A program made the position numbers and the translations under genes. From positions 128,001 through 192,000 of the IMG/VR virus record IMGVR_UViG_3300037780_000034: a DNA stretch of 64,000 nt, one strand, 5' to 3'. Below the pieces are notes generated by a model. That model did not search any database. It was not told where the DNA came from and saw only the letters and a program-made list of their open reading frames with translations. The DNA comes from a virus. Taxonomy: Duplodnaviria > Caudoviricetes. This document shows positions 8,812 to 29,977 of this stretch, piece by piece (the stretch's first letter is position 1; every line of letters starts with the position of its first letter).

Positions 8812-8933
8812 TGCATCGTAGCTCAGAGGTAGAGCAGGTGACTGTGGATGCTAAAGGTCATAGGGTCAGTTCGATTCTGACAGCATCAACCGTAATCACT
8901 TGGTCGCAGGTTCGATCCCTGCCGATGCAGCCA
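8812..8933 (+). tRNA. tRNA-Asn(GTT) interrupted by a 47-nt tRNA-like insert (8846-8892)
   Basis: TGCATCG/CGATGCA acceptor, G73, CCA, intact D and T arms; removing the insert gives loop CT-GTT-AA. Confidence 0.8.
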
Positions 8934-9420: not shown

Positions 9421-9516
9421 AAATATGTCGGTTCCATTCAGTTGGTTTATTGAAGAACGATACTTCAATTTAGTCTAGTCGTTTAGACAATCGGCTCCAT
9501 TTTTAAACTTTTTTTT

Positions 9517-9646
9517 AGGATCATTTCCGCAATATTTTACTTTGCATCAGAAGCACGTGTTTGCAGGTTCAAGTCCTGCCTCCCCAACCATAATAATTGA
9601 CGGGGAGTAGGCAAATGGTAAAGCCGCGTTAAGTAATATGATCCTG
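9517..9646 (+). ncRNA. cassette 1 carrying a circularly permuted tRNA (CAG, Leu-like)
   Basis: AGGATCAT-TTCCGCAA ... ATGATCCT-G; 3' half 9544-9590 precedes 5' half 9601-9629. Confidence 0.85.
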
Positions 9647-10280: not shown

Positions 10281-10543
10281 TACTGGTTGACACTGTTGAA
10301 AATCATTGATATAGTGTCAACAACAACAAAACGCTCTTTGACAATTTAACCATCTTCCCTATGCGAAAGCTATGATGGGATAAAAACAGACTTATTGTGT
10401 AAGATGAAGAATCTGTAAATCGCAATTGGTTGTCTGTTTTGAATATGATAGCACCACTTCCGAGTAATCAGATAATAACTGATTATTTCGAGTTAATTAA
10501 TAGTTTGAGCAAACGGATGCTATCATATTCAAAACAGATATAA

Positions 10544-10617
10544 GGCTCTATTGCATTGTGGAATGCAGCGGCTTCTAACCCCGTTTCAAGCAGGTTCGAC
10601 TCCTGTTAGGGCCACCA
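10544..10617 (+). tRNA. probable amber suppressor tRNA (CTA); alternative reading is a distorted Arg(TCT)
   Basis: canonical spacing puts TT-CTA-AC in the loop; C31.C39 mismatch. Confidence 0.65.
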
Positions 10618-11115: not shown

Positions 11116-11192
11116 GGAAGCATAGCATAATTGGTTAATGCCCACGTCTCATAAACGTGTTTATCTTGGTTCAAGTCCAAGTGCTTCCACCA
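11116..11192 (+). tRNA. tRNA(CAT), Met or Ile2
   Basis: canonical cloverleaf. Confidence 0.9.
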
Positions 11193-11337
11193 ATATGTTG
11201 AAACTTAATTGTCAGTCTGACGTTTCAATATTAATTAATTAATGACTGGCCAAAGGCTTGATGTGTTAAAAACCTTGTGGTGATGTAATCAAGATAAACC
11301 ACATAAACTCCTTTGTATGAAATGAAATTTCCTCTTT

Positions 11338-11395
11338 AGGATGATTACCGCAAAATTAATAAACTTTTTTTTGGTAAAAGCAGAACATCATCCTG
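11338..11395 (+). ncRNA. cassette 2 with a short hairpin cargo
   Basis: AGGATGAT-TACCGCAA ... ATCATCCT-G. Confidence 0.8.
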
Positions 11396-11407
11396 ATTGT
11401 GTATTGT

Positions 11408-11487
11408 GGGCGAGTGGGCAAATTGGTAAAGTCGGTTCACTCAAAATGAGAGTCATTTTGTCGGTTCGAGTCCGACCTCGCCTACCA
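11408..11487 (+). tRNA. tRNA-Leu(CAA)
   Basis: loop CT-CAA-AA; 8-nt variable region. Confidence 0.9.
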
Positions 11488-11572
11488 ATTTTATCTTATG
11501 AGTTAAGATTTGTTTTAATCATTGAAGTCCCTCTACGGGCACCAACAACTATAAACACTAAAATAGAATAAT

Positions 11573-11647
11573 GCGGACATCGTATAAGGTTATTACGCTT
11601 GGCGACCAGCTAAGAAATACAGGTTAGAATCCTGTTGTCCTGCTCCA
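11573..11647 (+). tRNA. atypical tRNA-Gly (ACC)
   Basis: Gly-type G1-C72, C2-G71, U73; bulged acceptor; loop CG-ACC-AG; T loop TTAGAAT. Confidence 0.65.
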
Positions 11648-11655
11648 AATAACTG

Positions 11656-11684
11656 TTGACACTCACCAGAGAATCAACTATAGT
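11656..11684 (+). promoter_or_regulatory. sigma70-type promoter
   Basis: TTGACA-17-TATAGT. Confidence 0.8.
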
Positions 11685-11708
11685 AACAGTGTAAGAACTA
11701 ATACTTGT

Positions 11709-11785
11709 GGGCCTGTAGCATAATTGGTTAATGCCCAGTGCTCATAACACTGTCAATCGCGGTTCAAGTCCGTGCGGGCCTACCA
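11709..11785 (+). tRNA. tRNA(CAT), Ile2 or Met
   Basis: canonical cloverleaf. Confidence 0.9.
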
Positions 11786-11805
11786 GTATTAGTTTTTGAT
11801 TTTTT

Positions 11806-11864
11806 AGGATGACTTCCGCAAAATTATGCATTTGACCGTTAATCAAAAAAGCAAAATCATCCTG
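11806..11864 (+). ncRNA. cassette 3 carrying an isolated Asn-type anticodon arm
   Basis: AGGATGAC-TTCCGCAA ... TTTGA-CC-GTT-AA-TCAAA ... ATCATCCT-G. Confidence 0.8.
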
Positions 11865-11873
11865 TAATAGAAT

Positions 11874-11967
11874 GGGCGCGTGGCGAAATTGGTTGAAACG
11901 CAAGGCACTTAAAATGCCTCACAGATTAGTGATCACACTGTGGGTTCGAGTCCCACCGCGCCTACCA
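11874..11967 (+). tRNA. tRNA-Leu(TAA)
   Basis: loop CT-TAA-AA; long variable arm. Confidence 0.9.
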
Positions 11968-12467: not shown

Positions 12468-12538
12468 ATCTTCTAATAATATAAATAATTATAGAAATTT
12501 GCAACCATTATACAACTACCAAAAAGGATTAAAATGTT

Positions 12539-12662
12539 AGGATCATTACCGCAATTTTATTTGCATTTCCAGCCGTAGATGCAGGTGCAATTCCTGCTCA
12601 CCCTACCAATATAAATTATGGGGTGATCGTCTAATAGTAGGACAACGTATAATATGATCCTG
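12539..12662 (+). ncRNA. cassette 4 carrying a circularly permuted tRNA (TTC, Glu-like)
   Basis: AGGATCAT-TACCGCAA ... ATGATCCT-G; 3' half 12563-12608, 5' half 12620-12647. Confidence 0.85.
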
Positions 12663-14560: not shown

Positions 14561-14568
14561 AATAATTT

Positions 14569-14653
14569 AGGAATATTTCAGCAAATTTATCTTGGATAAA
14601 ACATTGTTCTCAAAAACAAAGTGAAGTGGTTCAAATCCACATCAATATTCCTG
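14569..14653 (+). ncRNA. cassette 6 enclosing D-, anticodon- and T-like arms without an acceptor end
   Basis: AGGAATAT-TTCAGCAA ... GTGG-TTCAAAT-CCAC ... ATATTCCT-G. Confidence 0.8.
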
Positions 14654-14663
14654 ACTAATATCT

Positions 14664-14774
14664 TGGAACATTACCGCAACTATAACATAAACAATGGGTT
14701 ACAGGTTCAAATCCTGTCTTTTACAGTTTGTAAAAGTAGTTCAATGGTAGAACAATTGTCAAAAAATGTTCCAG
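14664..14774 (+). ncRNA. cassette 7 carrying a permuted tRNA-like RNA with a closed acceptor stem and no CCA
   Basis: TGGAACAT-TACCGCAA ... T arm, CTTTTACA-GTT-TGTAAAAG, D arm ... ATGTTCCA-G. Confidence 0.85.
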
Positions 14775-16509: not shown

Positions 16510-16615
16510 TAGTTTTATGATACACTGTCCGCAACAGGTCTTGATGGGGTAGCTTACGAGCAAGCCAAAGTGTAGGTGTAAGTCCTACCGCAGTGTATCA
16601 TAAAAATATAAATAT

Positions 16616-19142: not shown

Positions 19143-19148
19143 TCTTTT

Positions 19149-19368
19149 TGGATCAGTTCAGCAAACAATATTTCCGTGAAAAGGACCGTGACGGTGGTGC
19201 AAATCCGCCCTTCCCCGCCACAGATACACTATGACAACATAGACGGGTTAATCGCCGTAGGAACGAAGCAGTTTCCAAACCAACGATAGGAAGAGTTTGT
19301 CGTCTTCTGTAGTGTATCTTTGACGGGGAAGTAGCTCAGTTAGTAGAGCAGGTAAAAAGTTGATCCAG
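19149..19368 (+). ncRNA. cassette 8 carrying a circularly permuted tRNA-Phe(GAA)
   Basis: TGGATCAG-TTCAGCAA ... TTGATCCA-G; 3' half 19174-19220, 5' half 19325-19353. Confidence 0.85.
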
Positions 19369-23568: not shown

Positions 23569-25479
23569 ATGTTAATATCTGAAATGATAACCCTATTGGA
23601 AGCAACAAAATACGATTCTATGTTTGATGTTATTACTGGCAATAAATTAAAAACAATTCCAGATAATGTAAAACAATCGTTTAAAGATGCTATAGATACT
23701 CAGATAAATTGGGCTAGAAAATATTTAAAAAAAGAAGATAGAATTATATGGTTTTTACGAGTCTGTAAAATTCATTATTTGGAAGTAATGTTAGGAAGAT
23801 TTCCATCTGATGAAAATATGAAAAATATCAGCAATGAAAGTGACAGATTAAAATTAACAAATGAAAAAAATATCATAATAAAAGAAATAAATAAAACTTC
23901 AAACAAAGCGGGTGGATTGCAGGCAGTTAGAGATATAGGCACTGTTAGAAGAAATTTAATACATTATATTGGACAAGATCAAATTACCAGTATTCAAAAT
24001 TATGTTTTTAAAAATGAGCATCCAAACGAATTATATCAAAAATTTGAAGAATTTGAAGAAGAATGGAAAGAAAAAGTAGGAAGGGATAGTGTTACCATCA
24101 AAGAAGGTGACAAACTTATACTGGGATTTGATGGAGGCACAAAAGGATGGTGGTTGTTAGACCGTGGTGCATGTCGTGAAGAAGGTGATGCAATGGGTCA
24201 TTGCGGTAATGTTCCAAGTATCAAATCTGGTGATAGAATACTTAGCTTTAGAACCCAAATAGAAGGAAAATATTGGAAACCTCATTTAACTTTTATATTA
24301 CACGGTGATGGAACGCTTGGCGAAATGAAGGGTAGAAATAATGATAAACCTAATGAAAAATATCATCCTTATATAATAGAACTATTAAAACAATCTGATT
24401 TAATCAAAGGTATAAAAGGTGGCGGATATCGCCCAGAAAATAATTTTAGTTTAAGTGATTTGGATAAATCTGATCAAGATGATTTAATTGAAATAAATTC
24501 AAACTTAATGAATGTTTTTCAAAGATATAGAAAAAATGGATTTTCAAAAGAAATATTAGCAGAAATAAAAGATAAAAATTATGAATCAAGTTTGCCAAGT
24601 GTTGAAAGTTTTGATTATCCAACAGTTACATTAGAAGAGTGGTCCAATTTAGAAGAATTTGCAAGAAATTTTGATAATGAAGTTTTAAATTCATTAATGG
24701 CAAAAATTGATATAGAAGAAGAATTGGAAAATGATAGATTAGATGATGATGAACTACAAGAAATTGCAGATGAAATCAAAGTAGATTCAAACGATTATTA
24801 TGATATATTAGAACGATTACCACAACAAATACTTCAAACTATGGCAAATGATTTAAATCTTAATGTAGATGTTACCAATTTTAAAGGAATAGATTCTTTA
24901 TCTGAAAATATTGACAAATCAAAATATGGAGACATAATAAGACGTGCCATTGTAAAAACAAAAAACCTAAATAGTCAGCCTATTAAAGATGATCCTCAAA
25001 CAGTTGAATTTATTAATTTTTTTATGAATTCTGTAATATTAAGATCAAGTAAAATTTATAGTGCATATTTAGAATACGATGAAAATAATATTTTTGAAAC
25101 AACATTTTCTTATAAGATTAGTTTTGATGATTTTGTTAATATATTAGAAGAATCTTTTAGTAGTGGTGATGCTACCGAAGATGAAGAAGCTTTTTATATG
25201 GCACAAGATGCAATCAATGAAGGACAATGGTTATCCGTTGATAGTTATGATATATATCAAACATTAAAAAATTTAAAAAAACAAAATAGTCAATTTTCTG
25301 ATTATGACGAAGATGACAGAGAGTTGTATAATTCGTTTATAAAAAGAATAAACACTACAAACGTTGATTTATCTAATTTAAATCCAATAGAAGTTGCACG
25401 AGAAGTAGTAAGAATGATAAATTTTAATGAAAATGCAGAATTAAAAAGATTAAACATTTTAGCAGGTATTAAAAAATGA
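23569..25479 (+). CDS. large late protein with a PcfJ-like central domain (paralog A)
   Basis: CREEGDAMGHCGN...GEMKGRNNDKP. Confidence 0.75.
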   Translation: MLISEMITLLEATKYDSMFDVITGNKLKTIPDNVKQSFKDAIDTQINWARKYLKKEDRIIWFLRVCKIHYLEVMLGRFPSDENMKNISNESDRLKLTNEKNIIIKEINKTSNKAGGLQAVRDIGTVRRNLIHYIGQDQITSIQNYVFKNEHPNELYQKFEEFEEEWKEKVGRDSVTIKEGDKLILGFDGGTKGWWLLDRGACREEGDAMGHCGNVPSIKSGDRILSFRTQIEGKYWKPHLTFILHGDGTLGEMKGRNNDKPNEKYHPYIIELLKQSDLIKGIKGGGYRPENNFSLSDLDKSDQDDLIEINSNLMNVFQRYRKNGFSKEILAEIKDKNYESSLPSVESFDYPTVTLEEWSNLEEFARNFDNEVLNSLMAKIDIEEELENDRLDDDELQEIADEIKVDSNDYYDILERLPQQILQTMANDLNLNVDVTNFKGIDSLSENIDKSKYGDIIRRAIVKTKNLNSQPIKDDPQTVEFINFFMNSVILRSSKIYSAYLEYDENNIFETTFSYKISFDDFVNILEESFSSGDATEDEEAFYMAQDAINEGQWLSVDSYDIYQTLKNLKKQNSQFSDYDEDDRELYNSFIKRINTTNVDLSNLNPIEVAREVVRMINFNENAELKRLNILAGIKK

Positions 25480-29473: not shown

Positions 29474-29977
29474 ATGTTTACGGATACCCAAGTAGAAGAA
29501 TTAGTTGAATTACTGTTAACTTTAAATAAAAATACAAAAATATATATAGGGTGTGATTCCTATAGATTTATGAAAAAAGAAAAAAAATATGCAAAGTTTG
29601 CAACCGTGTGTATCGTTCATATGAATGGAAATAATGGTTGTAGAGTTTTTTCACATACGTCTATAGAACCGGACTTTGATTTAAAGGCTAATAGACCAAA
29701 GATGCGTATGCTTAATGAAGCAAAGAAAATTTGTGAAGCATATAATCAATTAATTCCTTTTGTAGATGAATATGATGTATCAGTTCATTTAGATATAAAT
29801 CTTGATGAACAGCATGGTTCAAACTGTGCTGCAAAAGAAGCAGCCGGATTTGTGCTTGGTATGACTGGATTGCCAGAAGAAAAAATCATATTTAAACCAG
29901 ATGCTTGGGCATCTTCGCACGGAGCAGACGGTTCTGTTCACGGTAGAACATCATCAACAAATAACTATATTATATAA
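29474..29977 (+). CDS. RNase H-like YkuK (DUF458) protein
   Basis: YIGCDS, VHLDIN, KPDAWASS. Confidence 0.8.
   Translation: MFTDTQVEELVELLLTLNKNTKIYIGCDSYRFMKKEKKYAKFATVCIVHMNGNNGCRVFSHTSIEPDFDLKANRPKMRMLNEAKKICEAYNQLIPFVDEYDVSVHLDINLDEQHGSNCAAKEAAGFVLGMTGLPEEKIIFKPDAWASSHGADGSVHGRTSSTNNYII

Follow-up and report, generated by a model that had tools for sequence, protein, structure and literature searches.

Ro60 and its Y RNA form a classic RNA-surveillance particle, whose roles in bacteria and phages are only beginning to be understood. In bacteria and phages, genes for Y RNAs that contain tRNA-like modules adjoin Ro60 genes (PMC4201824, PMC12135203), and a GNCGAA(N)G motif near the 5' end is the Ro-binding feature of the Y RNA or YrlA type (PMC4201824). 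Ro60 with Y-like RNAs is already known from phages, and this particle, including YrlA, YrlB, and the phage versions, is the closest functional analogue of the elements described here. These elements, cassettes 2 and 3, lie in a tRNA cluster within a 64,000-nucleotide (nt) stretch (the window; positions 128,001 to 192,000) of IMG/VR virus record IMGVR_UViG_3300037780_000034. They belong to a widespread and apparently undescribed phage family in which a conserved handle, consisting of a closing stem and a short motif, carries a look-alike of a tRNA anticodon arm. The record comprises 317,722 bp at 31% G+C and comes from a virus in a pond metagenome. One topoisomerase II subunit is ~43% identical to T4-like phage proteins, and, as judged from sequence, the virus is a distant T4-like jumbo phage.

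The two cassettes are located as follows (window coordinates, as are all others unless stated).

11336-11396, + strand: cassette 2, a putative minimal Y-like RNA of 61 nt (R1 covariance model, 55.4 bits)

11805-11864, + strand: cassette 3, a putative minimal Y-like RNA of 60 nt (R1 covariance model, 67.4 bits)

Each cassette is closed by a stem, which has 10 bp in cassette 2 (11336-11345 with 11387-11396) and 8 bp in cassette 3 (11805-11812 with 11857-11864, the outer pair being U.G). Next to this terminal stem, both carry a 5' motif of the form U-W-C-C-G-C-A-A, present as UACCGCAA at 11346-11353 in cassette 2, where an A-rich linker follows, and as UUCCGCAA at 11814-11821 in cassette 3. The ends read UUAGG...CCUGA and UUAGG...CCUGU, respectively. 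The original prediction, made from the sequence alone, had placed a hairpin in each cassette, and both are there, with 5 bp and a 7-nt loop each: CUUUU-UUUUGGU-AAAAG at 11364-11380 within the 10-bp stem, followed by the linker CAGAAC, and UUUGA-CCGUUAA-UCAAA at 11831-11847 within the 8-bp stem. The latter had been called a canonical Asn anticodon arm; its Asn-like GUU hairpin stands, and the word canonical does not, as position 33 is C instead of U. The minimum free energy (MFE) fold of cassette 3 contained both the stem and the hairpin. Two linkers that had been noted as common to the cassettes, AATTA (3' of the motif) and AAAGCA (5' of the 3' stem strand), do occur in both; the linkers of relatives are A-rich only and are not conserved. 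Neither ARAGORN nor RF00005 called a tRNA over 11336-11396 or 11805-11864, and no cloverleaf with D and T arms was found there. Among public runs, no RNA run was listed as a holder, and DNA contigs aligned to the region had no informative variation within the two cassettes. Other roles considered for the stem were rejected, namely, a tiny open reading frame (ORF) starting at the AUG of GGAUGAU, since the AUG is absent from many stems, and a terminator or pairing to the 3' end of 16S rRNA, since the stems and flanks vary.

A pattern composed of stem, motif, and closing strand was run on IMG/VR and on 596 Gb of prokaryote genomes. The IMG/VR search returned 28 loci, ~23 of which are real minimal cassettes, and most of the loci are embedded in tRNA arrays, sharing the strand of the tRNAs and separated from neighboring genes by 2-20 nt. 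In the prokaryote set there were 67 hits, nearly all of them chance matches in G+C-rich coding sequence, half with noncomplementary arms; the one or two real hits are on short AT-rich contigs of metagenome-assembled genomes. This near absence from 596 Gb of prokaryote genomes indicates that the cassette appears to be phage specific. The R1 covariance model has 56 members (E<=0.01) from 24 sources, and ~50 relatives are in tRNA clusters of other phages. Cultured phages are among the carriers: by R1, Synechococcus phage BUCT-ZZ01 has three copies, and Vibrio phage KVP40 has an unannotated one at 176662-176724, with tRNA-Asn on one side and an ORF on the other. The cargo of the KVP40 cassette (CUUUU-AUUUGGA-AAAAG) is nearly that of cassette 2, and further near relatives of this cargo are found in L032 and L044. 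R1 found no cassette in T4, S-CRM01, or Limnohabitans phage DC31, and T4 stable RNAs C and D were rejected as relatives, as they lack the handle and R1 finds nothing in T4. A first scan with a 17-mer pattern was discarded because 25 of its 26 hits were due to chance. Three single-protein scans for close relatives found none, megablast against cultured phages returned tRNA matches only, and an Rfam scan for ribozymes and other families returned only tRNA, sub-threshold YrlA, and sub-threshold Class I RNA. In the literature searched, we did not find a description of this RNA family, its setting in tRNA arrays, its anticodon-arm and permuted-tRNA cargo, or DUF2828/DUF7788 (see below) as a Ro-type partner.

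Across the family, the closing stem is 99.7% paired, with two-sided changes in 5 of 7 pairs. None of 500 shuffles matched the observed stem covariation score, and slid registers came nowhere near it; the alignment was fitted to the model, which favors pairing, and the slide control was clean. An A-G at the start of the stem is invariant in 50-52 of 52 family sequences. The consensus motif, UNCNGCAA (single-stranded U-N-C-N-G-C-A-A), follows the stem on the 5' side, and a C-U-G follows the 3' strand. At two loci of other phages (L034:5721-5824 and L038:349-466), the handle encloses an unpermuted tRNA-like body of the Arg-UCU type or a whole tRNA with CCA, showing that its attachment is possible at either the acceptor end or the anticodon stem. 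Also in the KVP40 cluster that holds the cassette (L130, 174500-179500) are three "tRNA-Pseudo" features, including one of 116 nt; these three may be long-cargo members of the family. Cassette-bearing phage tRNA clusters additionally encode transfer-messenger RNA (tmRNA) at L036:3683-4033 and L049:2319-2617, including matches to the permuted tmRNA family of 131.9 and 78.4 bits.

The cargo was then compared with chance expectation. A Y-U-NNN-R loop of 7 nt on a hairpin of at least 4 bp is present in 20 of 42 distinct minimal members, against a mean of 1.7 in dinucleotide shuffles (maximum of 7 in 500), and when C33 loops were also allowed, the count was 24 members against 2.4 expected. This enrichment, in a test of homologue loops that had been set beforehand, indicates selection for mimicry of the anticodon arm by the cargo, as opposed to a loop of random make-up. 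The commonest loop is C-U-NNN-A-A, and the anticodons displayed include CUU, UUU, GUU, UGU, GAU, GCU, and UUG. A U at position 36 occurs in 18 of 25 cassette arms and in 84 of 232 real tRNAs of the same loci (p ~9e-4, from loci that are not all independent).

A protein partner was sought by tblastn of all ORFs of the genome against the two cassette-bearing cultured phages and the three cassette-less ones. This differential screen singled out a gene with DUF2828 and DUF7788, nicotinamide adenine dinucleotide (NAD)-salvage genes, and one small protein. The NAD-salvage genes were judged unrelated to the cassettes; NatV-like and NadV-like genes (genome positions 99543-100580 and 103904-105349, outside the window) are common to KVP40 and BUCT-ZZ01 and absent from T4, S-CRM01, and DC31. 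The candidate partner gene, also outside the window (genome positions 85209-86636), encodes 475 amino acids that match Pfam DUF2828 and DUF7788. Such a protein is encoded in 13 of 13 cassette-bearing records, some of which are only 22-44% complete, and is absent from the cassette-less T4, S-CRM01, and DC31 and from 14 of 14 control genomes. Across phages, these proteins share only 35-57% identity.

An AlphaFold (AF2) model of the protein (predicted local distance difference test score [pLDDT], 78.6; predicted template modeling score [pTM], 0.75) was compared with known structures. In a Foldseek search of the PDB, the 13 best matches were all Ro60/TROVE structures (E values of 1e-9 to 3e-6, template modeling [TM] scores up to 0.62), among them Ro60 of Thermus phage phiLo, Xenopus, and human and Rsr of Deinococcus. 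Fold matches in Swiss-Prot were Ro60 proteins and telomerase p80. The predicted fold of the DUF2828/DUF7788 protein is that of Ro60, a HEAT-repeat (TROVE) ring with a vWA domain, and the DxSxS metal-site motif of vWA domains is present in its sequence. One Atlas cluster mixes the annotations TROVE, DUF2828, and DUF7788, and the KVP40 orthologue, KVP40.0300, is annotated merely as an RNA-binding protein. Canonical Ro60 had been considered as the partner and was rejected because TROVE is absent from six phage records; the divergent family was found instead.

The genes for this Ro-like protein and the handle are also neighbors. A handle-bearing element shares the strand of the Ro-like gene and is no more than 0.5 kb away from it at 10 of 11 loci, in several cases within the 5' leader of the gene. 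The source genome (G000) has a handle-only element with the stem GAAUGAU, the motif AACAGCAA, and 12 nt of cargo that follows a promoter and ends 17 nt before the ATG, and G001 has a similar handle element 10 nt upstream of the gene. Just upstream of the Ro-like gene, there are two handle copies in G003 and three in G005. G004 has a long tRNA-like cassette ~420 nt upstream, and BUCT-ZZ01 has a handle element 101 nt upstream; in KVP40, the motif is in the 5' leader of the gene, with a weak stem. At three independently sampled metagenomic loci (L183, L185, and L188), a cassette lies 350-500 nt downstream of the gene. An RNase H-like protein was considered as a second partner, as its homologue adjoins the Ro-like gene in KVP40, and was set aside when it was found in only one of five further records.

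29474-29977: RNase H-like protein (PF04308), 167 amino acids, whose homologue directly adjoins the Ro-like gene in KVP40

On the basis of computational evidence, namely the shared conserved handle, the co-occurrence, and the adjacency with a Ro60-like gene, we consider it fairly probable that the two cassettes encode members of a family of small phage RNAs with the architecture of Y RNAs, whose members would be partners of the Ro-like protein. The cassette RNAs would be made within polycistronic tRNA transcripts and freed by processing of the flanking tRNAs. The handle would serve the Ro-like protein as a binding site, the counterpart of the Ro60-bound terminal stem of Y RNAs, leaving the exposed anticodon arm as an effector module that may tether or titrate a factor that reads anticodon loops during infection; a host anticodon nuclease, a modification enzyme, and a repair enzyme are candidates. 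A bait or decoy role for the displayed arm is compatible with such a Y-RNA-like ribonucleoprotein, and the decoy proposal of the original prediction would be one version of this engagement step. Through the handle-only copies in its 5' leader, the Ro-like gene is probably under feedback control, its protein regulating its own mRNA.

Several observations weigh against this reading. The loop of cassette 2 has G37 and U38, and when cassette 2 was folded alone, the MFE favored another pairing. Cassette 3 lacks the universal U33. Some 40% of minimal relatives carry other cargo, with no anticodon-like hairpin. The phage motif stands beside the helix, whereas GNCGAA(N)G of Y RNAs is within a bulged helix, and Pfam TROVE (PF05731) had no match in the six phage records. 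A distance of ~50 kb separates cassettes 2 and 3 from the Ro-like gene in the source genome. Finally, the co-occurrence could partly reflect shared ancestry of these phages, and its counts are not fully independent, since the records are related to unknown degrees. As to the unusual loops, unrelated contigs again show both forms, C33 as in cassette 3 and UUG-G37 as in cassette 2; the CCGUUAA loop is found again in L032, and C33 loops are found in L037 and L026.

In their immediate setting, the two cassettes look like ordinary array members. Between 8,800 and 22,500, the + strand carries a cluster of more than 22 tRNA genes, and each cassette is flanked by tRNA-Met and tRNA-Leu at tRNA-like spacing, with a strong sigma-70-like promoter upstream.

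11408-11487, + strand: tRNA-Leu(CAA), directly 3' of cassette 2

11656-11684, + strand: candidate sigma-70-like promoter (TTGACA, 17 nt, TATAGT; 11 of 12 consensus matches)

11709-11785, + strand: tRNA-Met(CAU), 5' of cassette 3

11874-11967, + strand: tRNA-Leu(UAA), directly 3' of cassette 3

The 3' end of cassette 2 is 11 nt from tRNA-Leu(CAA), and cassette 3 lies 19 nt 3' of tRNA-Met and 9 nt 5' of tRNA-Leu(UAA). The tRNA-Met at 11709-11785 is a paralogue of that at 11116-11192, which is upstream of cassette 2 (repeat D3). By its consensus match, the promoter at 11656-11684 would drive tRNA-Met, cassette 3, and tRNA-Leu(UAA); a second, twin sigma-70-like promoter is at 10287-10315, upstream of cassette 2. 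The same cluster contains a tRNA-Asn(GUU) at 8812-8930 that was said to be interrupted exactly at its anticodon, and we found a 47-nt insert between positions 35 and 36 that folds as an acceptor-like stem plus T arm (a tRNA minihelix). The whole gene scored 54.5 bits as a tRNA in Rfam and was missed by ARAGORN. An amber-reading tRNA (anticodon CUA, 10544-10617) lies just 3' of a perfect 21-bp inverted repeat (10433-10453 with 10518-10538).

A stem-plus-motif scan of the window found nine cassette copies in the tRNA cluster, all on the + (tRNA) strand. For the 5' signature, the window has 6 occurrences where 0.14 would be expected, a count that was never attained in 100 shuffles. The seven siblings of cassettes 2 and 3 are the following.

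9516-9646, + strand: cassette 1; handle UUCCGCAA; cargo is a circularly permuted Leu(CAG)-like tRNA broken between positions 29 and 30

12538-12662, + strand: cassette 4; handle UACCGCAA; cargo is a permuted Glu(UUC)-like tRNA; R1, 31.9 bits

12697-12816, + strand: cassette 5; 10-bp stem; motif UUCAGCAA; cargo unlike tRNA

14567-14654, + strand: cassette 6; 11-bp stem; motif UUCAGCAA; cargo with a T arm; R1, 23.4 bits

14663-14774, + strand: cassette 7; handle UACCGCAA; cargo is a closed, YrlA-like tRNA-like module (T arm, sealed acceptor stem, and D arm)

16513-16605, + strand: cassette 8; 16-bp stem; motif GUCCGCAA; cargo with a T-arm-like hairpin

19148-19368, + strand: cassette 9; 9-bp stem; motif UUCAGCAA; cargo is a permuted Phe(GAA) tRNA with a 104-nt spacer

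A 16-mer, TGGAACATTACCGCAA, at 24201-24216 on the - strand, inside the ORF at 23569-25479, is identical to the start of cassette 7 and may be due to chance or be a relic.

The cassettes might instead be free-standing decoys for host anticodon nucleases or anticodon-modifying enzymes, the handle merely stabilizing the arm and the Ro-like protein being uninvolved. The selected mimicry of anticodon arms and the overrepresentation of U36 arms (Lys, Asn, Ile, Thr, and Ser-AGY types) would suit such a role, as would the view that phage tRNA clusters counter tRNA-cleaving defenses (PMC10264068, PMC11464382). A stabilizing stem, however, leaves the conserved single-stranded motif and the CUG tail unexplained, and the 13 of 13 co-occurrence, the adjacency, and the handle-only copies in the leader of the Ro-like gene are left unexplained as well. 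Some cassettes, moreover, carry T-arm-only or non-tRNA cargo. We regard this explanation as unlikely.

Another proposal is that the handle is a cut-and-join processing signal whose stem marks the ends for an endonuclease and a ligase. The permuted tRNAs would then mature via circles, and the minimal cassettes would be small circles or by-products. Cassettes 1, 4, and 9 are permuted (Leu-CAG, Glu-UUC, and Phe-GAA), a join of positions 29 and 30 would complete a perfect anticodon stem in each, and the only Phe tRNA of the cluster is the permuted one in cassette 9. The junction, however, lacks bulge-helix-bulge geometry, the distance from handle to join varies from 6 to 11 nt, and there is no match to a known ribozyme. 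Some cassettes enclose unpermuted or sealed tRNA-like modules, for which joining is unneeded. The original prediction had offered small circles as one reading of cassettes 2 and 3, and this found no support; they show no ribozyme or bulge-helix-bulge signature, and cassettes lie 2-20 nt from tRNAs like ordinary members of the array. A cut-and-join role is judged quite improbable.

Decay of tRNA genes could also leave an acceptor-like stem and an anticodon arm, in which case the cassettes would be functionless remnants or spacers in the array. The 5' connector of 18-21 nt corresponds in length to tRNA positions 8-26, the stem is followed first by a U, comparable to U8, and the units fill tRNA slots in arrays. 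Against this, the handle is conserved and the stem covaries across phages whose Ro-like proteins share so little identity, the same cargo types recur in phages as distant as KVP40, and the cassettes are linked to the Ro-like protein gene. It is very unlikely that they are relics of this kind. That the cassettes are a DNA-level mobile element with variable cargo (a miniature inverted-repeat element or homing site) is scarcely credible, since, despite terminal inverted repeats, many copies, and a variable interior, every copy shares the strand of the tRNAs, G.U pairs would not match if read on the opposite strand, the stems stay paired through compensatory changes as their sequence diverges, and no target-site duplications or transposase association was seen.

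The reading of the cassettes as Y-RNA-like partners of a Ro-like protein can be set against the described systems. Like YrlA and YrlB and like Yrl1 and Yrl2 of Thermus phage phiLo, which accompany Ro60 or Rsr, the cassettes have a terminal stem formed by both ends and a short conserved motif on the 5' side. The second module of Y RNAs is likewise variable and is often a tRNA mimic, with short hairpin-only forms (YrlB) alongside, and their genes likewise adjoin a Ro60-fold gene on its strand, in systems that also occur in phages (PMC4201824, PMC12135203). The differences are that the phage protein is of the DUF2828/DUF7788 type and is undetected by Pfam TROVE, that most phage copies are inside tRNA arrays, and that the phage cargo extends to bare anticodon arms and to whole permuted tRNAs with their anticodons, features missing from YrlA. 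The tRNA-like module (T arm, D arm, and acceptor stem) is absent from cassettes 2 and 3 and present in the sibling at 14663-14774. With the Rfam YrlA model (RF02553; gathering threshold, 69 bits), cassettes 2 and 3 gave no hit, and siblings scored a sub-threshold 31.5 bits (cassette 7) and 38.2 bits. By both motif and score, the cassettes are outside the Rfam YrlA family.

Two kinds of unusual tRNA offer more limited parallels. Like the armless and T-armless mitochondrial tRNAs of nematodes, the cassettes combine an acceptor-like 7-bp stem with an anticodon arm through connectors that are unpaired, and the 3' connector of the cassettes, at 6-11 nt, resembles a TV-replacement loop. Unlike these tRNAs, the cassettes have no CCA or discriminator logic, use one handle for all anticodon types, and are found in a bacterial setting; there is no sign of their aminoacylation. 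Circularly permuted tRNA genes are found in Cyanidioschyzon merolae and some archaea. As in these genes, siblings 1, 4, and 9 have the 3' half of the tRNA before the 5' half, and the leader pairs with the trailer; they differ in having no bulge-helix-bulge and in being broken inside the anticodon stem, between positions 29 and 30. The ligases for permuted tRNA genes have been reviewed (PMC3400036). Cassettes 2 and 3, lacking a tRNA body, fall outside this comparison.

If the reading as Y-RNA-like partners is correct, the cassettes would represent a new class of Y-like RNA, with a display module made from tRNA parts and reduced in the extreme to a bare anticodon arm, that links Ro-type particles directly to the tRNA warfare between phages and bacterial defenses. 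DUF2828/DUF7788 is a very large uncharacterized family, with thousands of metagenomic homologues and a Ro60-like predicted fold, which now has a candidate RNA partner. Cultured, tractable carriers of both components exist, namely, Synechococcus phage BUCT-ZZ01 and Vibrio phage KVP40, in which they are KVP40.0300 and the RNA at 176662-176724.

A last comparison is with the Class I RNAs of dictyostelids (Rfam RF01414), which are 42-65 nt long, have a short stem joining the ends, and are conserved in structure and not in sequence (Kjellin et al. 2021, PMC7919456). The cassettes, at 60-61 nt, are within this size range (~42-65 nt), and both groups have a covarying end stem of 6-7 bp that opens with G, preceded by A, with C-U-G(-U) after the 3' strand. 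In both, a motif, UUACAGCAA, directly follows the 5' strand, and the inner part is A-rich and variable. Many phage relatives carry AUUACAGCAA, as compared with the 11-nt Class I motif CCUUACAGCAA; cassettes 2 and 3 have the CCGCAA variant. Eleven phage cassettes aligned full-length to RF01414 at 13.3-30.5 bits, all below the gathering threshold of 41.5, and the scan gave no hit for cassettes 2 and 3. In a reciprocal, sequence-only test, the phage profile gave 3.0-4.4 bits for five Dictyostelium Class I RNAs and up to 5.2 for shuffles. Class I RNAs also differ in being transcribed from nuclear genes with a Dictyostelium upstream sequence element (DUSE) promoter ~60 nt upstream, in binding an RRM protein (Rnp1A), and in having no clear anticodon-like hairpin, whereas the phage promoter is of the bacterial type. 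Given the sub-threshold scores, the lack of a hit for cassettes 2 and 3, and the weak reciprocal test, we treat the resemblance as a lead and not as a finding, and we regard it as possible, though doubtful, that the phage handle and the Class I scaffold are the same binding platform for Ro60 paralogues of the DUF2828/DUF7788 type, a family with members in both phages and eukaryotes. Were that so, Class I RNAs, which are thought to be unique to social amoebae and whose mechanism is unexplained, would be Y-like RNAs of a second Ro lineage, and the phage RNAs would be their counterparts that display tRNA parts and are used in conflicts over host tRNAs.

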